Source: Promethearchaeota archaeon
GTDB lineage: Archaea; Asgardarchaeota; Lokiarchaeia; Sigyniarchaeales; SOKP01
Reading direction: 5' to 3'
Length of the DNA: 64,000 nt
NCBI GenBank assembly: GCA_011364975.1
Contig: RDOE01000002.1
Location: 9,793 to 73,792 of the forward strand
Positions 24,945 to 33,880 of the stretch are shown here, one piece after another (position 1 is the first letter of the stretch; every line of letters begins with the position of its first letter). A program made the position numbers and the translations under genes. Below the pieces are notes generated by a model. The model saw only the letters and a program-made list of their open reading frames with translations. It was not told the origin of the DNA and did not search any database.

Positions 24945-25985
24945 TTAAACCATTAGGAGCATTTTATCAATCTTTTGATCAGTTAAGAGTATTCTATAAT
25001 ATGGTTCATTATTTTTATAAATAACCTCCTCTAATTTACCTAATACGAAAACTTTCTCCCCTTTAACTGCCTGTTCACAATATCTTCCTCGGTATGAAGT
25101 AATCTTAGTTATTTTATTCATATCGAGATGAGATATTTTTAGATGTTGTTCAATAATCTGGAAACATTTTATTGAATAGGAGCAGGGTGTAAAAATTGAT
25201 TCAGAAGAATCGATTATTTCACCTTTTACTGCGATGGTACCTAGATTCTTGAATTGATAATCATAATATGTTCCTTCCCAATCTTCAGGACTTTTAATAT
25301 AACGAATAAAGAAATCAATATTAAGATATTTTCCTTGATGTTGTTTTCTTTGTTCACTTCTTAAGAAATCTTGAAATGAAACATCAGAGCCCCCAAATCT
25401 CCAATTGTAGTGAGATTTAAACTCATCAAGTTTATATTTTCTGCAGGAATTTGGTTTTTCATATATTTCTTTTAATTTATTTTGAAATTCTAAAGAATTT
25501 TGAGTACCATAAATGATGATATCTATATCCGAATCTAAGTTACTTAATCCGATCATAGAAGATCCGGATATCCCAATAGAATTCTCTGAAAGAGAAGAGT
25601 TTTGTATAAATAGATCGCATAAATCAAAAGACATTAACTCTAATTTTGAAAGGTTTTCTTTATGATGTAAAAATTTGAAATAGTTTTTTGGAGTATAAAT
25701 TTTTTTAATATCTTCACATTTAACTCCTTGAAGTGGAATGTCAAGTTCTTTAGAATAGAATAAATATTGGGGAAATTTCTCTTTTAGTATCAAAAATCTA
25801 TCATCAAAAGCATAGACTTTTTTGAATTTAATACCATTTTTTACACGATCTCCATTTTGATCTGGAAAAAATCGTAAAAAACAAATTTTTCGATCTTTTG
25901 GGTGATGAATACCTTTTATATCAAAAAAAAGATTATCTTTTTTCGTTTCAAGGTAATCTCCTTCAATTCCTTTTGGAACTTCCAT
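24945..25985 (-). CDS. archaeal Pol-beta-fold nucleotidyltransferase (COG1665-like)
   Basis: KGIHHP, GISGS...SDIDIIIYG, C-terminal OB-like GEKVFVLGKLE. Confidence 0.8.
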   Translation of the reverse strand: MEVPKGIEGDYLETKKDNLFFDIKGIHHPKDRKICFLRFFPDQNGDRVKNGIKFKKVYAFDDRFLILKEKFPQYLFYSKELDIPLQGVKCEDIKKIYTPKNYFKFLHHKENLSKLELMSFDLCDLFIQNSSLSENSIGISGSSMIGLSNLDSDIDIIIYGTQNSLEFQNKLKEIYEKPNSCRKYKLDEFKSHYNWRFGGSDVSFQDFLRSEQRKQHQGKYLNIDFFIRYIKSPEDWEGTYYDYQFKNLGTIAVKGEIIDSSESIFTPCSYSIKCFQIIEQHLKISHLDMNKITKITSYRGRYCEQAVKGEKVFVLGKLEEVIYKNNEPYYRILLTDQKIDKMLLMV

Positions 25986-26006: not shown

Positions 26007-27110
26007 TTAATAATTTGAAGGAGTCTTTGTTTTAATTTTATATTTTGGGATTTCTCTTACTTTTCTTAATTCTCTTTCAAAATCCTTCTTTTCTTGTAAA
26101 AATCTCTCTTTGTCTCGATCTAATTTCTCTCTTTCTCGTTTAATTATATTTTTTTCACTTTCAATTCGAGATTTTTCATTTTCTAATCGCTTAAATTGAT
26201 TATTTAATTCTTTTAATTTATTTTCTGAATTACGAATTTTATGTTCTAATGAAAAGTAAGTATCTTCAGCTTTAGGAACCTTGTAATTTAATTCCTTTAA
26301 TTTTGCTTCTTGTTCTTTTCTCTTTCTTTCGAGGTTCTTTAATTCATCTTCTAGCTTGTCTTTAAATTTCTCTAATTCCGTTTTTTTCTTTTCTACTTCT
26401 CGGTTTTTAAGGTTTAAGTCTTTCTTTTTATATTTTACTCCTCGCTTTTCTTCTTGTAATTTTCTTTTCTCATCTTCAATTCGATTTCTTTCATCAATAA
26501 TTTCTCTTTTCAAATCATTAATCTCTTTGTCTAAATTGTCTCTTTCTCTAGTTAGACTTTTTATTTCATTTCTTAACCGCATTAAATCGTTTTCTAGCTT
26601 TTCAATAGTTCGTTCTAATGCTTCCTCTCGTCTCTCCATTCCAGGTATTTTAGTTTTAATTTCCTTTATACGGTTTTGTGCTCCTTCTTTTTCTCTTTCT
26701 AATAGTCTTTTTTCCTCGGTTAAGTTTTCTTTTAATCGCTCTAATTGTTCTTGATATGCTCTTAAGTCTGACTTTTTTTGATTTAACTCTCTTTCTTTTT
26801 GATCAATCTTATTTCTACTCTCATATATTACATTTTTCATCGCATCCATTTCTTGCTTTAACTTCTCGCGCTGATCGAGTAGATCTCTGACTTCAAGTTC
26901 TTTTTCTTTTCTTTTATGTTCTAAATTTTTAATGTTTACTTGATAGTCTTCAAATTTCTTTATAACTCTTTCCCATTCGGTTTTTTCTCTGTTTAATTTA
27001 ATTCTTTCTTCCTTAATTTTTTTCAATAATTTCGAATCTGGAATGCTTTCTATACTTTCTTCCGGTGTTTTCTCTCGAATTTGAAACTTTGGAATATTAT
27101 TATCAGTCAT
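26007..27110 (-). CDS. long coiled-coil protein
   Basis: About 320 aa of E/K/R-rich heptads with no globular or ATPase motif. Confidence 0.85.
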   Translation of the reverse strand: MTDNNIPKFQIREKTPEESIESIPDSKLLKKIKEERIKLNREKTEWERVIKKFEDYQVNIKNLEHKRKEKELEVRDLLDQREKLKQEMDAMKNVIYESRNKIDQKERELNQKKSDLRAYQEQLERLKENLTEEKRLLEREKEGAQNRIKEIKTKIPGMERREEALERTIEKLENDLMRLRNEIKSLTRERDNLDKEINDLKREIIDERNRIEDEKRKLQEEKRGVKYKKKDLNLKNREVEKKKTELEKFKDKLEDELKNLERKRKEQEAKLKELNYKVPKAEDTYFSLEHKIRNSENKLKELNNQFKRLENEKSRIESEKNIIKREREKLDRDKERFLQEKKDFERELRKVREIPKYKIKTKTPSNY

Positions 27111-27285: not shown

Positions 27286-27708
27286 ATGGAATTTGATGAG
27301 GAGTTTGATGAAGAGTTTGATGAAGAGTTTGATGAGGAGTTTGATGAGGATTTAGATGAAGATCTAGATGAGCAATCATCAGAACCTCCTGGAAAAATTC
27401 CAGATGATGATGTTAAAACCAAAACCCCTGAACCTAAAGTAATTCAGGAAGGGAAAAAGATTTCAGTCTACTTCATGTCAACTATAGGTCCAGGTGAAAA
27501 AAAGCAAAAACTGTTAATTAACACGGGAAATAAGGTTGGTGATGTAAAAGAAACCGCTGCAAATTTGTTTGGTTTAGATCCTGCTGACTTTCATTTATCC
27601 TCGAGTGGGGTTACGATGGATGAAAATTCAAGCTTAAACGATTATAATATAGCTGATGGAGATGATATTCTTTTGATTCCGGCAAGCACCGCGGGATTAA
27701 AATGTTAA
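27286..27708 (+). CDS. ubiquitin-like (UFM1-like) modifier 1 with an acidic N-terminal extension
   Basis: Beta-grasp signature G..MD....L.DYNI.DGD.ILLIP. Ends PASTAG-LKC. Confidence 0.85.
   Translation: MEFDEEFDEEFDEEFDEEFDEDLDEDLDEQSSEPPGKIPDDDVKTKTPEPKVIQEGKKISVYFMSTIGPGEKKQKLLINTGNKVGDVKETAANLFGLDPADFHLSSSGVTMDENSSLNDYNIADGDDILLIPASTAGLKC
27289..27372 (+). repeat. 7 x 12-bp tandem repeat encoding (E/D)(F/L)DE
   Basis: GARTTTGATGAR x5 followed by GATYTAGATGAR x2. Confidence 0.9.
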
Positions 27709-27725
27709 TTAAATTTATAAAATAA

Positions 27726-28547
27726 TTAGCTTTTTCCATTAATTTTTTTTCTGGTAGGAATTAGAGCTAATTCATCATCATCTTCAATATTGTAGTCAAT
27801 AATTTTTAAATCATCATCTAACAAGATTCCTCCAGAGGAAATTAGAAAACCATCTGGATTATAATCAAATAAAACACCTATTTTCTGTTTGATTATATTT
27901 ATCAATTCCGATGTATCAATTATCATTATTTTCGTTTTCTCACCAGGTTCAATTAATGATCGAACATAAACACGTATTTTCTCATCAATTTCAACAATTC
28001 TTTTTGGTGGGGTATAATTTATAGGATCGTCTGTGACACTTCTGTTTTTTATCATAGTTTCAATTAGTTGAATTCTCTCATCAGGATCGAAGTATAATAA
28101 TTCTCTAATGAAAAAAATTTTATCCATTTTTGAAAGTCCCAATAGGTTTATTTTCTCTAAATCTTCTTTTTTAAATACAGAAAAGATATAGTCATTAATT
28201 TTTGGAATATCTTCAAATGATTCATTTGAATCAGCATAACTATCAATTAAAGGATTTGCCTCAAAGTAGTCTTCAATAAATTGATTAGCTAGATTTTTTA
28301 ATGATTTCTTTTGAGGTTGATATTTTTGTTGAGGTAGCGCTTTTTTCTTTCCTAAAAACTTATATGAGCTCTCTTTTGACTGAATAATGGTATAAGCAGT
28401 ACTAGTAGATAATACAGCTACACTACTAATAGTTAAAAAGAGATATAAAGGAATACTCTCTACCCTCGAAAGGAACAATATTATATAAATACAAGTTACA
28501 ACAATGTAGAGAGTTATTAAACCAAATGCTCTATTTTTATTTCTCAT
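27726..28547 (-). CDS. membrane-anchored protein with a C-terminal UFM1-like domain (no terminal Gly motif)
   Basis: Two N-terminal hydrophobic helices. The C-terminal domain VYVRSLIEPGEK...SSGG..LD.....DYNIEDDDELALIP is a paralog of both modifiers. Confidence 0.82.
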   Translation of the reverse strand: MRNKNRAFGLITLYIVVTCIYIILFLSRVESIPLYLFLTISSVAVLSTSTAYTIIQSKESSYKFLGKKKALPQQKYQPQKKSLKNLANQFIEDYFEANPLIDSYADSNESFEDIPKINDYIFSVFKKEDLEKINLLGLSKMDKIFFIRELLYFDPDERIQLIETMIKNRSVTDDPINYTPPKRIVEIDEKIRVYVRSLIEPGEKTKIMIIDTSELINIIKQKIGVLFDYNPDGFLISSGGILLDDDLKIIDYNIEDDDELALIPTRKKINGKS

Positions 28548-28628
28548 AATTTTTATACTATTATTCTAAATTTCTAATGTATTATTCAAAATTTAAATTC
28601 CATTGGTATAAATCTGAAATTTTATAAC

Positions 28629-29300
28629 CTACTCACCCACAATAGAGTTCATTATTTTTGTATATTTCTCAGTATCTAATCTAAATAATATTCTTTTATT
28701 ATCTTTTTCAACCTTTATAATCCTTAATTTATGAAGAATTTTAAGATACTTTTTAATTGTATTGTAATTCTTCTTTAAATTCTTCGCTAATTGGGTAGCT
28801 TTTAAGCTATTTTCTTCTTTTAACATAAATTCGATTATTTCTTGGATAATTACTTGTTTTAAATAATAAGATAACTCGTCGTATTCGGGATTTGACTCAT
28901 AGTGAAAGATTATTCTTTGATTATCAATTTTTTTTGATCTAGTAAATCCAAATTTTTCTAAGCAAGATAAATGCCATAATACTTGATTGCTACCAATATT
29001 TATCGCTTTCATAATTTCATTGATATTGGCAGGTTGTTTCTTGATATAATTATAAATTTCATTTCTGATTGGATGTTCGATAATATTATTTTTCATTAAT
29101 TTAGTTCCTGGTATTAGGATTCTTTTTTTAATTAGTTTTTTTATAATTTTTTCAATACTATTTTTATTCAAATTTGGGTTAAATTTCACCCTATTATTTA
29201 TATAAACAACAATATCCTCAATTGAAAAAAATGGCTTCTTTTTTAAATACTCCTTTATTAGATCACAAACAATAGCTTGAAGGGTATCAGAAGAGCTCAT
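28629..29300 (-). CDS. tandem winged-HTH transcriptional regulator (ArsR-like)
   Basis: RNEIYNYI...NQVLWHLSCLEKFG and TQLAKNLKKNYNTIKKYLKIL. Confidence 0.8.
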   Translation of the reverse strand: MSSSDTLQAIVCDLIKEYLKKKPFFSIEDIVVYINNRVKFNPNLNKNSIEKIIKKLIKKRILIPGTKLMKNNIIEHPIRNEIYNYIKKQPANINEIMKAINIGSNQVLWHLSCLEKFGFTRSKKIDNQRIIFHYESNPEYDELSYYLKQVIIQEIIEFMLKEENSLKATQLAKNLKKNYNTIKKYLKILHKLRIIKVEKDNKRILFRLDTEKYTKIMNSIVGE

Positions 29301-29565
29301 AAACTTTAATTTTTTTTTGTTAAAATACCTTGATTTTTAAACTAAATCTTCTTTCTAAACAGTATTTCCAATAATTATATATTAATAAGCCTACACTCAA
29401 TTTATAAATATATTTTCCTAAGAATGCTTTTGAAACTTTAGTACTTATTTGAGAAATTTTTAATATTTCAAATTCATTCCAAATGGTTTTTTAATATCAG
29501 ATTTGCGTGTTATTATTAAAAAATAAAATAAAATTAATATTTAAAAATATAAGAATGTGATTTGA

Positions 29566-29898
29566 ATGAGTTTTGACAACGATTTTGATGAAGAATTAGA
29601 GCCTGTTAAATCTAAAACTCCATCAAGTAAAACACCCACAACAGGTAAAAAGTTGACTTTATACTTTATGTCAACTATTGGTCCTGGTGAAAAGAAAGAG
29701 AAATTAACAGTGAATGACGCTAACCGTGTAAGTGATATCAAACAAACATTAGGAAATTTATTTGGACTCGATCCTGATGAATTTCACCTTTCATCTGGTG
29801 GAGTAACTATGGATGAAAGTAATCAACTAAAAGATTATAATGTTAATGATGGCGATGATATCCTTCTGATCCCAGCGAGTACTGCGGGATACTTTTAA
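29566..29898 (+). CDS. ubiquitin-like (UFM1-like) modifier 2
   Basis: Close paralog of 27286..27708. Ends PASTAG-YF and lies directly upstream of the E1. Confidence 0.87.
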   Translation: MSFDNDFDEELEPVKSKTPSSKTPTTGKKLTLYFMSTIGPGEKKEKLTVNDANRVSDIKQTLGNLFGLDPDEFHLSSGGVTMDESNQLKDYNVNDGDDILLIPASTAGYF

Positions 29899-29973: not shown

Positions 29974-31206
29974 GTGATAATATTGGATAAGGATTCAGAT
30001 TTTTTTGCAAAAGGAATGTCAGCGGAAGAGAGAGATCTGTATGATCGCCAATTTCGTTTAGAAGGATGGTCTCAGAAATTGGTAAAAAACTCGAGAGTCT
30101 TAATAGCAGGTGTTGGTGGATTAGGTTGTGAAATTGCAAAAAATCTAGCGATGTTAGGAGTAGGTCATTTAGATCTTGTTGATTTAGACATTATTGAGCA
30201 TTCTAATTTAAATCGTCAAATTTTATTTACAGGCGCTAAGTTAGGGGCACCAAAAGCAATTGTCGCGGCTCAAAAATTAACCGAGATTAATCCAAATATT
30301 GTTGTGAAAGGATATCATTCTTCTTTAGAACGGTTAGACCCTGCTTTATACTATGCTGCTGATGTTATTATTGGAGGCCTTGATTCAATGAATGCCCGCT
30401 TGAATTTAAATGCTCAGTGTATACGCTTTAGAAAGCCGTTTGTAGATGGTGGAGTATCTGGTTATCATGGGCATATGTATTCGATCTTTCCTTATCAAAA
30501 TGCTTGTTATGAATGTAATCCACTTCCAGTATCGGAAAGTGATGAAATGGCGGCCTGTACTGTAGTAGGGGTTCCTCGAAAACGTATTCATTGTCTTTTT
30601 AAAGGAGATATGGCCTTTAAAGAAAAATTTGATAGAGATCCAAATCCAAAAAATATAACAGATATTGAATTTATTCAAAAAGTTGCAAATGAATTAGTAA
30701 ATAAACATAATTTCTTACCAGAATATACAATAGATGATATTGTTAAAATCATTAATCGCCACGATCCTGGGATCATCACGATTAATGCGGTAATATCTGC
30801 TTTAGAATCTCATGAGGCTGTTAAAATATTGCATTGGAAAAAAGGTCATAAGGGTTTAGGACACCCTATTGCGAGTTATGTAATATTTAATGCAATGACA
30901 ATGAAACTTTATCACATAGAAAAGAAGAGAAATCCAGAATGTTCTCAATGTGGTAAAAATACAAGGCGTGTGGTCATAAAGATGAGAGCTCAATCACCAT
31001 GTTTGAATATAATTCGAACATTAAAAAAGAATGGGTTTGAATTAGAGCCTGAATTTGAACCAGTTCTAACCCTGCAAGATTATAATGATATCTTGGTTTT
31101 AGATTTAGAGCAGAGTTTGATTGAGAATGGTTTGAGGAATTACGAATTTTTAACTGTTGCAGGGTTTAAGGGTGGAGAAATTTATGTTACCTTAAAATTA
31201 ATTTAA
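29974..31206 (+). CDS. ubiquitin-activating enzyme E1 (UBA3/UBA2-like)
   Basis: YDRQ, GVGGLG, D.D.IE.SNLNRQ, CYEC, catalytic ACTVVGVPRKRIHC, CSQC and a C-terminal UFD-like domain. Probable start is the TTG at 29983 after GGTGA. Confidence 0.93.
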   Translation: MIILDKDSDFFAKGMSAEERDLYDRQFRLEGWSQKLVKNSRVLIAGVGGLGCEIAKNLAMLGVGHLDLVDLDIIEHSNLNRQILFTGAKLGAPKAIVAAQKLTEINPNIVVKGYHSSLERLDPALYYAADVIIGGLDSMNARLNLNAQCIRFRKPFVDGGVSGYHGHMYSIFPYQNACYECNPLPVSESDEMAACTVVGVPRKRIHCLFKGDMAFKEKFDRDPNPKNITDIEFIQKVANELVNKHNFLPEYTIDDIVKIINRHDPGIITINAVISALESHEAVKILHWKKGHKGLGHPIASYVIFNAMTMKLYHIEKKRNPECSQCGKNTRRVVIKMRAQSPCLNIIRTLKKNGFELEPEFEPVLTLQDYNDILVLDLEQSLIENGLRNYEFLTVAGFKGGEIYVTLKLI

Positions 31207-31298: not shown

Positions 31299-31826
31299 AT
31301 GAGTATAAGAAGTAGTCGGATTTCTCAAGATTTTGCAGGATTAAAAAAGTTACTCAAGGATGGTACTATTATTCAATTAAAACCTTTTAATCCAAAAAAG
31401 AAAAGCATTGATCATTTAGCAATTACGCTCAAAGGACCTAAAAATACAGCATATGCAGGAGGCTTGTTTAAATTGGAGATGAGTTTCCCTGCTCAATATC
31501 CTAAGCAACCACCATTTGTAAGAATGCACACTCCGATATGGCATCCAAATTTTTGGCCAAAACCAAATGAATATAAGGGACAGAGAAATATTTGTTTAGC
31601 ATTAGTGGATCCTTCTTTAGCAGGTAAAAAAGGAGGATGGAGTCCTTCAAAAACTGCTGTCACCATTGTTCAAGCCATAATTGCTATGTTAAATACCAGT
31701 GGTAAATATGTAAATCCTACTGATGTGTTTAATAAGAAAGCTGCAATGGAAATGATGAAAGATCCAAAGTTTTTCGATAAAAAGGTTAAAAATTTAGTAA
31801 AGAAGTATGCAAAGGATAAATGGTGA
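31299..31826 (+). CDS. ubiquitin-conjugating enzyme E2 (UBC)
   Basis: GP..T.Y.GG.F, YPKQPP, HPN, catalytic ICL, WSP. Confidence 0.94.
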   Translation: MSIRSSRISQDFAGLKKLLKDGTIIQLKPFNPKKKSIDHLAITLKGPKNTAYAGGLFKLEMSFPAQYPKQPPFVRMHTPIWHPNFWPKPNEYKGQRNICLALVDPSLAGKKGGWSPSKTAVTIVQAIIAMLNTSGKYVNPTDVFNKKAAMEMMKDPKFFDKKVKNLVKKYAKDKW

Positions 31827-31832
31827 ATCTAA

Positions 31833-32654
31833 ATGAATGAAGATGATAAGATTAGTATCTCGATTAAGGAAGCAGTTAAGCAAAAAATTAAAGAGAAAAT
31901 TAAAAAAGAATTACTTGAAGAGATATATAATGAACTAAAGTTAGAAGAAGAATTAGAGGAAGAAATAACATTTGAGTTAATAGATACCAAACCGTTAGAA
32001 CACTCAGAAAGTATTAAGGAAAAACTCGAACCCATTCCTATGGTGCCAGTAAAAACTACCGCTAATAGTGATAAAATTAAAGCACAAATTGTGATAACTG
32101 TTAAAGCTGTTCTAAAGATCGCAAGTCATTCTTTAAAGTACGCTCACTCTAAAATTCCACGAGAAGATTGGGTTGAAGTGATCGGCTTGTTGGCAGGAAA
32201 ATACGATAACGCAAAGGGAGTGTTATATGTTGAAGATGCTTATCCTATGGGTCATGGCACAGCTGTCTACGCAGAGATTAATGTTGAAAGGAATCGAAAG
32301 TCTGGTCATGAACGAGCGTATGAAGAAATTATCAAAAAGGGGTTATTCATTTGTGGATGGTATCATTCTCATCCTTCCTATGGTTGTTTTATGTCTAGAG
32401 AAGATTTAGGAACTCAAGCACGGTATCAAAAGTTATGGGATAAAGCTATAGCTTTAGTTATAGATCCATATCAAATTAATGGATTATCATTAGGATTTGA
32501 AATATATCGTGCAAATTTTAAAACTAAAAAATGGTTTTCGGTACCTTTTGACATCAAGGGGTACTTAGACGTAAAAATGTTACCTGAGATATTAGACTTT
32601 ATGAATCCAATAATTGAGGGAAGAGCAGCCTATTTAGAATATGATGAAGAATAA
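31833..32654 (+). CDS. JAMM/MPN+ metallo-isopeptidase (CSN5/Rpn11-like)
   Basis: EVIGLLAG and GWYHSHPSYGCFMSREDLGTQ...ALVIDP. Confidence 0.94.
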   Translation: MNEDDKISISIKEAVKQKIKEKIKKELLEEIYNELKLEEELEEEITFELIDTKPLEHSESIKEKLEPIPMVPVKTTANSDKIKAQIVITVKAVLKIASHSLKYAHSKIPREDWVEVIGLLAGKYDNAKGVLYVEDAYPMGHGTAVYAEINVERNRKSGHERAYEEIIKKGLFICGWYHSHPSYGCFMSREDLGTQARYQKLWDKAIALVIDPYQINGLSLGFEIYRANFKTKKWFSVPFDIKGYLDVKMLPEILDFMNPIIEGRAAYLEYDEE

Positions 32655-32683: not shown

Positions 32684-33880
32684 ATGGTAAAAAAGAAGGG
32701 AATAGCAATAATATTTATTCTATTTCTCCTAATAGGACTTATCCATGGTTTAATTTCAATTTCACTAAATATTTCTTTAACCTGGATATTAATTGGATTG
32801 TGGATAATAGTTTCCTTAAAAATTATAGAAAATATAAGAAGACATCGCGAGTTTAATTCTCCTCATAATACTGCCTTTTTTGTTGTAATCCCTTTATTCA
32901 TGGGGATTTTTTATTCCATTTGGGGGTATTTTACGGGTATTTTTGGAGAAAATCTTATCGAAGGTTCGAATCTTTATTTTAGTGGTTGGAGTCTTATTTT
33001 TGGATTTCCTTATGTAACATATGGTTCCTACTCATTATATCGTTGCTTTAAGAAATATAATGTTATTTATTTTGGGGCAAAATCTATAAAAGCTAAGACT
33101 TTTGGATTTATTTTAGCTTTTGTGGTACTTAGCTTTATTATAACTTATTGGATAATATTTTATTCAATATTTGATTATTTTGAGACAATATTAATACCAC
33201 TTCATTTGTCGTTAAATCTTAATCTTTTAATATTATTTATTAGTTCTATTTTAATATTAACTATATTTGGATTTTTTGCTTCACAGAGAACCCTACCTGC
33301 ATTAACTAATGATTATATAGAACAACGAACGAGAAAAATAAATTCTTTAGCGAATGCTTCACCGTCATCTTTGCCCAGAACTCAGAGACGACAAGTAACA
33401 AATAGACACTCAATCCAAACGCCCTCCAGTAAAACTGAAACTATTGCTTCAAGAACTCGAACTAATTCATCAAGAACTACTCCAACCTCTCAAAGAAAGA
33501 CTCAAAGGACCAAGATAACTTATAAAACGAATTCAACAAGAAAAACCTCTGGAACATCACAAAATCGAGGAAAAAAAATGCGAAATTTAGATATATACAA
33601 ACCTATAGCAGCATTACTTTCACCAGAAGATTTTAAATGTATTTTCTGCTTTAAATTACCAAAACTCCCCGAAGATAGAAGTAGAGGTATCATTTTATGC
33701 CCAAATTGTAAATATCCTGCACATGCAGATGAGTTCAAAGATTGGGTAAGAACTTCGAATCTCTGTTCAAGATGCAGTACACCAATTTCCTCTAGCTTCA
33801 GAAACAATCCTAAAATTATTAGCGTAAAAAATTATATGGTAATTTATAAATACTTTTTAAACAAGAAAAATAAAAAATAG
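32684..33880 (+). CDS. multi-pass membrane protein with a C-terminal RING-variant finger (putative E3 ligase)
   Basis: About 6 TM helices, an S/T/R-rich linker, then CIFC-x16-CPNC-x4-H-x2-E-x3-W-x6-CSRC. Confidence 0.78.
   Translation: MVKKKGIAIIFILFLLIGLIHGLISISLNISLTWILIGLWIIVSLKIIENIRRHREFNSPHNTAFFVVIPLFMGIFYSIWGYFTGIFGENLIEGSNLYFSGWSLIFGFPYVTYGSYSLYRCFKKYNVIYFGAKSIKAKTFGFILAFVVLSFIITYWIIFYSIFDYFETILIPLHLSLNLNLLILFISSILILTIFGFFASQRTLPALTNDYIEQRTRKINSLANASPSSLPRTQRRQVTNRHSIQTPSSKTETIASRTRTNSSRTTPTSQRKTQRTKITYKTNSTRKTSGTSQNRGKKMRNLDIYKPIAALLSPEDFKCIFCFKLPKLPEDRSRGIILCPNCKYPAHADEFKDWVRTSNLCSRCSTPISSSFRNNPKIISVKNYMVIYKYFLNKKNKK

Follow-up and report, generated by a model that had tools for sequence, protein, structure and literature searches.

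Two ubiquitin-fold proteins ending in a single conserved glycine, probable modifiers of a ubiquitin-type conjugation system in a Lokiarchaeial genome

Results

In this work, we analysed a stretch of 64,000 nucleotides (the whole of which is called the window here) from contig RDOE01000002.1 of a Promethearchaeota archaeon of the Lokiarchaeia, with a low G+C content of 25–33%. A search of sequencing runs listed 20 DNA matches in seven studies and none from RNA. Attention is given to two open reading frames (ORFs), Ubl1 and Ubl2, which encode small ubiquitin-like (UBL) proteins within a cluster of ten genes (Table 1). A first-pass annotation of this DNA had likened both products to the eukaryotic modifier UFM1. 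Ubl1 and Ubl2 are paralogous beta-grasp proteins with 73/119 identities (61%; BLASTP, E 2e-49). The segment DGDDILLIPASTAG is common to both, and the 14 residues ending at Gly are identical, followed by the differing tails LKC in Ubl1 and YF in Ubl2. Thus, both ORFs lie where they had been placed, and the earlier observation that the paralogues are the same through ILLIPASTAG and split right after the Gly was confirmed. The genome holds three matches to the Ubl, all of them within the window, and is without an extra solitary copy. The AlphaFold2 model of Ubl2 is a beta-grasp with a predicted local distance difference test score (pLDDT) of 86–91 in the core, and it is preceded by a disordered N-terminal arm of about 28 residues, which in Ubl1 extends to about 60 residues. 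The lysines of this arm are conserved, and its K[ST]KTP motif was found in 98 of 120 homologues.

Table 1. Features of the ten-gene cluster in the window and of the UFM1-type loci on other contigs of the same genome.
Feature	Position	Strand	Description	Basis
Ubl1	27286..27708	+	140-amino-acid (aa) precursor of a predicted ubiquitin-type modifier: acidic repeat arm, KTKTP motif, beta-grasp, ...IPASTAG, LKC tail	ORF; PF00240 24.0 bits, E 3.3e-5
Tandem repeat in Ubl1	27288..27359	+	12-bp period, 6.0 copies, 91% matches; encodes the N-terminal (E-F-D-E)n acidic stretch	Tandem Repeats Finder and translation
Ubl2	29566..29898	+	110-aa predicted ubiquitin-type precursor: disordered arm 1-28 with KSKTP, beta-grasp 29-103, ASTAG to G108, YF extension	ORF; PF00240 29.1 bits
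Nucleotidyltransferase-domain protein	24945-25985	-	Conserved upstream neighbour of Ubl1	Pfam NTP_transf_2 E 3.7e-4
Coiled-coil protein	26007-27110	-	367 aa, Lys/Glu-rich; conserved upstream neighbour of Ubl1	Pfam coiled-coil families only
Membrane-anchored UBL-domain protein	27726..28547	-	273 aa, C-terminal beta-grasp	PF00240 26.8 bits; 37% identity to Ubl2 over 86 aa, E 2e-20
Winged helix-turn-helix (wHTH) protein	28629..29300	-	223 aa, two ArsR-type winged-helix domains	HTH_5 E 2.7e-11 (two stretches); NCBIfam ArsR/SmtB subfamily E 8.7e-12
E1 activating enzyme	29974..31206	+	410 aa; inserted Cys region, candidate catalytic Cys195 (A-C-T context), CxxC pairs at 178, 323	ThiF fold 193 bits
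E2 conjugating enzyme	31299..31826	+	175 aa, canonical UBC fold; HPN at 82, single Cys at 99	UQ_con 89 bits
Rpn11-like JAMM metalloprotease	31833..32654	+	273 aa; intact HxHx7Sx2D motif at 178	JAB 52.3 bits
Polytopic membrane zinc-finger protein	32684..33880	+	398 aa; at least 5 hydrophobic segments, Ser/Thr/Arg-rich linker, C-terminal Cys/His domain
UFM1-type operon	contig C149, locus L019 4325-8860	+	UBA5-like E1, JAMM-like protein, 88-aa protein, UFC1-like E2, winged-helix protein
UFL1/DDRGK/PCI-repeat protein	contig C162, locus L020 6013-8382	+	789 aa; N-terminal zinc ribbons, repeated winged helices	56 bits in genome scan

The C-terminal glycine was followed through the homologues. A search of 5.8 billion proteins returned 857 relatives at E ≤ 0.001, and the 120 closest of them were used for tail counts. 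The named relatives come from metagenome-assembled genomes of Promethearchaeota or Lokiarchaeota, and some are annotated as 'ubiquitin-like domain-containing protein'. Ala-Gly is kept in all 120 closest homologues and is followed by a variable tail of 0 (33 proteins), 1 (2), 2 (59), 3 (25) or 4 residues (1). Furthermore, HMMER was run exhaustively against 1.84 billion cluster representatives (50% identity) and gave 402 matches at E ≤ 0.001, and 39 of the 150 listed end with [LIVM]Px[ST]xAG plus zero to six residues; one of these 39, P0137, has Ala-Gly-Gly. In an alignment of 43 diverse members of the family (A1), L100, I102, P103, A107 and G108 are invariant. Across 80 species-representative loci, the stop codon falls exactly at the Gly in 43 of 54 Ubl1 orthologues, 37 of 62 Ubl2 orthologues and 14 of 19 solitary copies. 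The masked Gly is therefore an exception in the family, most orthologues being unmasked. Two further relatives, P0121 and P0122, are head-to-tail poly-Ubl precursors of three and two units, where STAG ends four of the five units and SQAG the other one, and the acidic arm of the next unit directly follows each internal unit. The tails are thus labile in sequence and often absent, which argues that residues past the Gly are dispensable and that the Gly is the conserved end. The first-pass annotation had described a single Gly masked by a short extension as a processed end and had regarded loss of this Gly in homologues as an argument against it, and in both respects it is upheld by these counts. 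These data support Ubl1 and Ubl2 as putative conjugatable ubiquitin-fold modifiers with a single conserved C-terminal Gly behind a short, evolutionarily labile extension.

Some relatives carry the same domain within a larger protein. In P0125 and P0138, both among the 39 representatives, the Ala-Gly Ubl domain stands at the C-terminus behind long unrelated N-terminal regions. By eye, this region of P0125 resembles a Roadblock/LC7-type domain, and that of P0138 a P-loop ATPase. In P0254 (1395 aa), another listed representative, the motif and domain are internal. Whole proteins might be ligated via a Ubl end of this kind.

By comparing the modifiers with known families, the closest relationship was found to ubiquitin. 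PF00240 (ubiquitin; curated cut-off 25.4 bits) was the best Pfam family for all three UBL domains of the window, including that of the membrane-anchored protein (Table 1). When the 43 members of A1 were searched with hmmscan at E ≤ 10, ubiquitin was matched by 42, Rad60-SLD by 35, UBL_USP40 by 28 and ThiS, weakly, by three, and Ufm1 was absent among the 25 of 29 families listed. When all six frames of the entire genome were scanned at E ≤ 10, the Ufm1 profile PF03671 gave no match in the contig of the window and a sole match of 12.3 bits on contig C129; in scans at this threshold, the HMMER filters discard most matches above E ~0.1. The same profile was above its cut-off in none of 400 Asgard genomes and reached E ≤ 0.01 in 10, all of them in long unrelated frames. 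Among the PDB sequences, the best 60 of 303 matches of Ubl2 were ubiquitin, ubiquitin variants and Hub1. Residues 46-102 of Ubl2 align without gaps to residues 14-70 of ubiquitin (phmmer), which bears out the earlier remark that the DYN segment is ubiquitin-like. This alignment puts G108 on G76 and A107 on G75 of ubiquitin, so that the tail has the length of that of ubiquitin, and the Pro-to-Gly spacing therefore cannot separate ubiquitin from UFM1. In structure searches with the Ubl2 model, the top Foldseek matches were to Caldiarchaeum ubiquitin (6fno, 6fj7, 6fnn), at an identity of only 21–23%, and the next ones were to ubiquitin, ISG15, NEDD8, SUMO and Hub1. UFM1 was absent among the 50 matches listed in the PDB search and in the VIA-wide search each, an absence which concerns these lists only.

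The enzymes encoded downstream of Ubl2 are of the same type. The E1 scored 130 bits against SAE2 (UBA2), 127 against UBA1, 118 against UBA3, 113 against MoeB, 92 against ThiF and 58.7 against UBA5 in the PDB, so that it is assigned by sequence to the UBA1/UBA2/UBA3 type, with UBA5 below half that score. The best PDB matches of the E2 were the ubiquitin E2s Ubc15, UBE2R, UBE2T and UBE2L3 (62 bits), compared with 46.9 bits for UBC9, and UFC1 was not among the best 60 of its 288 PDB matches. The JAMM protease was closest to the Rpn11-like protein of Caldiarchaeum (6fjv, 61.8 bits), then to RPN11 and CSN5. At the end of the cluster lies the gene for a polytopic membrane protein, whose C-terminal domain has CxxC pairs at 319, 339 and 361 and His347. 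A PDB sequence search with this protein gave no match, and the language-model clusters nearest to it, with values of 0.89 and 0.87 under a lead threshold of 0.9, were those of archaeal RING-finger proteins. It is a weakly supported candidate RING-type E3 and the weakest assignment in the cluster.

The ten-gene order (nucleotidyltransferase, coiled-coil, Ubl1, membrane UBL, wHTH, Ubl2, E1, E2, JAMM, membrane zinc-finger protein) was compared across the 80 related loci, which were located in species-representative genomes with a single Ubl protein as the query. It is complete in 39 of the loci, and the cluster or a contig-truncated part of it is present in 61, so that the cluster is conserved across Promethearchaeota. 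A Ubl1 orthologue stands at the corresponding place in 54 of the 80 loci. The genes for the membrane UBL, wHTH and zinc-finger proteins hold conserved positions, the last of them at the end of the cluster, and the nucleotidyltransferase and coiled-coil genes occur in all 39 complete loci and in further partial ones. The other 19 loci (including L043, L049, L052, L053 and L061) have a solitary Ubl2-like gene, 75–86% identical, away from the E1/E2 cluster.

Two further neighbours are of interest. The membrane UBL protein has N-terminal hydrophobic segments at residues 8-26 and 29-47 and a basic tail with no conserved terminal Gly, as its relatives P0192, P0219, P0239 and P0268 also have basic tails without Gly; it is therefore probably not conjugated. 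The wHTH protein, divergently transcribed from the Ubl2-E1 operon, is a candidate local regulator. It was also considered as an ESCRT-II (endosomal sorting complex required for transport) or UFL1-like winged-helix protein, for which there was no such Pfam match, ArsR-type HTH_5 being clearly the best. No ESCRT gene was found within the ten-gene cluster.

A separate UFM1-type system is, to judge from profiles and a structure model, encoded in the same genome outside the window. A genome scan for UFM1-pathway families gave a UFC1 match of 25 bits on contig C149, in an operon (Table 1) whose E1 (277 aa) has its best PDB matches in UBA5 with 172.5 bits over near-full length, MoeB reaching 96.7 bits. 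The UFC1-like E2 (180 aa) has UFC1 in 25 of its 27 PDB matches (E 3e-4 to 2e-3) and scores 26.3 bits against PF08694 (cut-off 25). Between these two enzymes sits an 88-aa protein that ends ...RGIVG, with Val-Gly at the very C-terminus. Pfam and PDB sequence searches with it gave no match; in Foldseek, its AlphaFold2 model (pLDDT 84) had UFM1 at ranks 1–10 with TM scores of 0.69–0.91. This result serves as a positive control, because it means that the same pipeline detects UFM1 likeness where it is present. Members of this UFM1-like family turned up in 37 of the 400 Asgard genomes that were scanned (10 of 90 high-quality ones), and in relatives the UBA5-like and UFC1-like genes flank the UFM1-like gene in a conserved operon. 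In six of 30 loci (L111, L113, L114, L115, L118 and L120), the UFM1-like gene is fused in frame to the UFC1-like E2, the Val-Gly being followed by a short linker and then by the E2, 181–183 further residues. It follows from such a fusion that the chain is cut after the Gly, the adjacent JAMM being the presumed protease. No match to Peptidase_C78 was found in the genome, the completeness of which is 99%. On contig C162, a 789-aa protein matches PCI (E 4e-20), E3_UFM1_ligase (E 1.4e-16), DDRGK (E 7e-16) and, weakly, adaptin C2 (E 0.03), with a VPS28 C-terminal match of 24.5 bits at its cut-off; its architecture is mentioned in a 2020 preprint (Liu et al., 2020). Asgard Ufm1 homologues found by structure have been reported (Köstlbacher et al., 2026; PMC12962969), and the 88-aa protein is very likely of this kind. 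UFC1 and UBA5 are not mentioned in the main text of that paper, and UFM1 and UFC1 are stated to be exclusive to eukaryotes by Picchianti (2023; PMC10183829). Judged on the main text without the supplements, the operon context on contig C149 may be unreported.

The window family and the UFM1-like family retain some likeness to each other. With hhalign, they align over 59 columns that run without a gap from beta1 to beta3 (E 4.8e-4, probability 32%). The A1 profile scored 44 proteins of the UFM1-like family at a median of 8.8 bits, a value reached by none of 880 shuffles (maximum 5.0), and in the reverse direction the profile of the UFM1-like family (A2) gave 120 proteins of the window family a median of 7.0 bits, reached by none of 960 shuffles (maximum 5.1; hmmsearch). 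On ubiquitin units, the median of the A1 profile was 15.2 bits. In both families, the beta1-beta2 loop is longer than the ubiquitin profile aligns. The two families appear from these profiles to be homologous beta-grasps, and the UFM1 likeness that had been noticed is real but generic. The idea of a UFM1 connection thus stands as far as the single-Gly end and a weak, above-null profile similarity are concerned, and falls as to a specific affinity.

Discussion

Ubl1 and Ubl2 very probably serve a Lokiarchaeial (Promethearchaeota) conjugation system of the ubiquitin type as its two modifiers. Profile, modelled structure and predicted enzymes together place the window family on the ubiquitin side, and its members are not UFM1 orthologues. 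The profile comparison against Ufm1, ubiquitin and SUMO and the AlphaFold-based structure search, both proposed in the first-pass annotation, gave PF00240 and Caldiarchaeum ubiquitin as the best matches, so that its description of the protein as intermediate between ubiquitin and UFM1 is not supported. The cluster has the layout of those archaeal ubiquitin operons, from Caldiarchaeum and from a Helarchaeon, for which reconstitution has been achieved. In the Caldiarchaeum subterraneum system (CsUb, E1, E2, small RING finger protein, CsRpn11), the genes for Ubl, E1, E2, zinc-finger protein and JAMM likewise form an operon, a C-terminal extension is also encoded at the end of the modifier, and its proteins provide the closest structure for Ubl2 and the closest PDB match for the JAMM. 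On the other hand, Caldiarchaeum ubiquitin ends with Gly-Gly and the window family with Ala-Gly, the tail has nine residues there and 0–7 here, where it is usually absent, and the zinc-finger protein is small and soluble there and polytopic in the membrane here. The disordered N-terminal arm, the second modifier paralogue and the membrane-anchored UBL protein are further differences from that system. The Helarchaeial operon shares the gene set of E1, E2, RING protein and ubiquitin and a short-tailed pro-ubiquitin, whereas its modifier has Gly-Gly plus four residues; this cascade has been reconstituted in vitro (bioRxiv 10.1101/2023.07.25.550441). In Heimdall/Odin archaea, ubiquitin binds the UEV domain of ESCRT-I; the ten-gene cluster here contains no ESCRT gene. 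A discrete ubiquitin region had already been listed in Lokiarchaeal genomes in an earlier study (Hatano et al.; PMC9192718). In the searchable literature, without supplements and paywalled papers, where they may be in print, neither the Ala-Gly end nor the N-terminal arm of Lokiarchaeal ubiquitin is mentioned, and the same holds, again outside supplements, for the occurrence together of a zinc-finger protein and a UBL protein that are both membrane proteins. The cluster is therefore of a known kind, that of the Asgard and Caldiarchaeum ubiquitin operons, and the Ala-Gly end, the arm and the membrane pairing are variations and no new class.

We propose the following course of conjugation, for which the cascades reconstituted from Caldiarchaeum and the Helarchaeon serve as the analogy. 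In both of these, pro-ubiquitin loses its tail and activation is confined to the form that ends in Gly, the cut by Rpn11 preceding activation in Caldiarchaeum (PMC5654768; PMC6043591; bioRxiv 10.1101/2023.07.25.550441). In the window, the Rpn11-like JAMM would strip LKC or YF and expose the Gly; it would also cut the poly-Ubl precursors of the relatives and reverse conjugation. The E1 would adenylate the Gly and then form a thioester, for which Cys195 is the candidate residue, and the modifier would be handed on to Cys99 of the E2. The membrane-embedded RING-like protein may then direct the transfer to lysines of membrane-proximal targets. More speculatively, the disordered Lys-rich arm with its K[ST]KTP motif could accept further modifiers in the style of the SUMO arm or act as a docking element, and an adaptor role without conjugation is conceivable for the membrane-anchored UBL protein. 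The two-domain ArsR-type protein may act as a regulator of the system.

Several observations weigh against this interpretation. Ubl1, with 24.0 bits, lies just below the PF00240 cut-off of 25.4. The terminal Ala-Gly, kept in all 120 closest homologues, differs from Gly-Gly, the defining end of ubiquitin, NEDD8, SUMO and those archaeal ubiquitins that have been characterised, and a nearly invariant Ser76 sits on the position of Ile44 of ubiquitin, so that eukaryote-type ubiquitin receptors may not apply. The JAMM cannot have the trimming of precursors as its main role, since a tail is missing from most orthologues. The RING match of the zinc-finger protein is weak (zf-RING_16, E 0.23), with only seven obvious Cys/His ligands. 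Moreover, PF03671 also misses the Asgard UFM1-like family, which weakens its negative result for the window. There is a weak but real similarity, above the null, between the window family and the UFM1-like family of the genome, and A2 scores the window family above eukaryotic polyubiquitin (median 7.0 versus -3.6 bits, with 14 of 53 polyubiquitins scored), although these polyubiquitins had been picked through the search with the query itself and the A1/A2 comparison with them is biased.

UFM1 has a C-terminal dipeptide in which a non-Gly residue precedes the Gly, and a short pro-extension. A single C-terminal Gly of this kind behind a short extension, presumably removed, is present in the window Ubl family, and it speaks for a view of Ubl1 and Ubl2 as UFM1-like, or as an intermediate handled by a UFM1-type pathway. 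The beta1-beta2 loop (residues 37-42), which exceeds that of ubiquitin so that the Pfam ubiquitin match begins only at residue 43, the hhalign and hmmsearch similarity to the genome's UFM1-like family (E 4.8e-4; median 8.8 bits) and the presence of UFL1/DDRGK-like and UFC1-like genes in the genome would fit the same view. However, the hhalign probability is just 32%, Pfam Ufm1 has no match in the window at E ≤ 10 and is not among the 25 of 29 families listed, and the best structures are ubiquitins, whereas the same pipeline ranks UFM1 first for the 88-aa protein on contig C149. It is also this other Ubl that is flanked by the UBA5-like and UFC1-like genes, in a conserved operon. Compared with the eukaryotic system (UFM1, UBA5, UFC1, UFL1-DDRGK1, UfSP), the single terminal Gly after a non-Gly residue and the short pro-extension are alike, but the E1 is not of the UBA5 type (58.7 bits against UBA5, compared with 172.5 bits for the E1 on contig C149), the E2 has the HPN motif and UQ_con match where UFC1 has no HPN, and a JAMM stands in place of the cysteine protease UfSP, with no Peptidase_C78 in the genome. 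Thus, the adjoining E1, E2 and protease are all ubiquitin-type. The first-pass annotation had itself named best profile or structure hits to other beta-grasp families as evidence against a UFM1 affinity, and with ubiquitin as the best profile hit, matched by 42 of 43 members, the UFM1 reading is largely refuted and hardly probable any longer.

Ubl1 and Ubl2 could also be non-conjugated UBL adaptors or sulfur carriers of the ThiS/MoaD/SAMP kind, with the Gly serving thiocarboxylation and not tagging. The resemblance of the E1 to MoeB and ThiF (112.6 and 92 bits, with NCBIfam matches), the weak ThiS matches in three of the 43 members and the non-conjugatable membrane UBL paralogue in the cluster point in this direction, but the E1 scores UBA2, UBA1 and UBA3 higher and has the inserted Cys region, and the co-conserved E2 (HPN and Cys), Rpn11-like JAMM and RING-like protein (39–61 of 80 loci) are not needed by sulfur-carrier systems. 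The poly-Ubl precursors and labile tails suggest, moreover, that the Gly is freed for ligation, and we regard such a carrier or adaptor role as very improbable. SUMO has a flexible N-terminal arm, and the disordered, Lys-bearing arm of the window family is similar to it. A SUMO-like way of working, with the arm used for chain building and the modification for signalling and not degradation, would agree with the conserved lysines and K[ST]KTP motif of this arm, with the Rad60-SLD (SUMO-like) matches in 35 of 43 members, with SAE2 as the top PDB match of the E1 (130 bits) and with the SUMO chains among the structural matches. Nevertheless, SAE2 is ahead of UBA1 by just 3 bits, the E2 prefers ubiquitin E2s (62 bits) to UBC9 (46.9 bits), Ubl2 scores 29.1 bits with PF00240 and 18.7 bits with Rad60-SLD, and the protease is a JAMM and not a Ulp-type cysteine protease. 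The archaeal system is in addition probably older than the split of ubiquitin, SUMO and NEDD8. SUMO-like working is very improbable here.

Hrd1-Herp/Usa1 pair a membrane RING protein with a membrane UBL protein in endoplasmic-reticulum-associated degradation, and the encoding of a polytopic membrane zinc-finger protein near a membrane UBL protein is similar to this in layout only. It is conceivable, but rather unlikely, that the Ala-Gly modifiers form a distinct, membrane-working branch of the ubiquitin clade, in which a single E1 and E2 serve both paralogous tags, the Lys-rich K[ST]KTP arm and not the beta-grasp (where the Ile44 patch is Ser) is the site of chain building, and the polytopic zinc-finger E3 acts with the non-conjugatable membrane UBL. 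If true, archaea would have a counterpart to the quality control of membrane proteins by Hrd1-Herp/Usa1, operating in the same cell as a complete UFM1-type system that is separate from it.

For the conjugation system to which Ubl1 and Ubl2 very probably belong, the invariant Ala-Gly end would mean that the archaeal ubiquitin clade also has members without Gly-Gly, and the Ser at the Ile44 position warns against assuming eukaryote-type receptors. Residues 90-108 of Ubl2, the last 19 up to the Gly, contain no Lys or Arg, so trypsin would leave a 19-residue remnant on modified lysines, and proteomics by standard enrichment of the tryptic di-Gly remnant would miss the modification in cultured Lokiarchaeia. 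The UFM1 assignment of the window proteins was a tempting mis-assignment, which is now corrected: ubiquitin-type and UFM1-type systems appear as two separate gene sets in one Lokiarchaeial genome, each with its own E1, E2 and JAMM, and the window holds the ubiquitin-type one. The conserved operon of UBA5-like, JAMM, UFM1-like and UFC1-like genes is a more interesting lead than the window itself, as it would make the origin of UFMylation testable in archaea.

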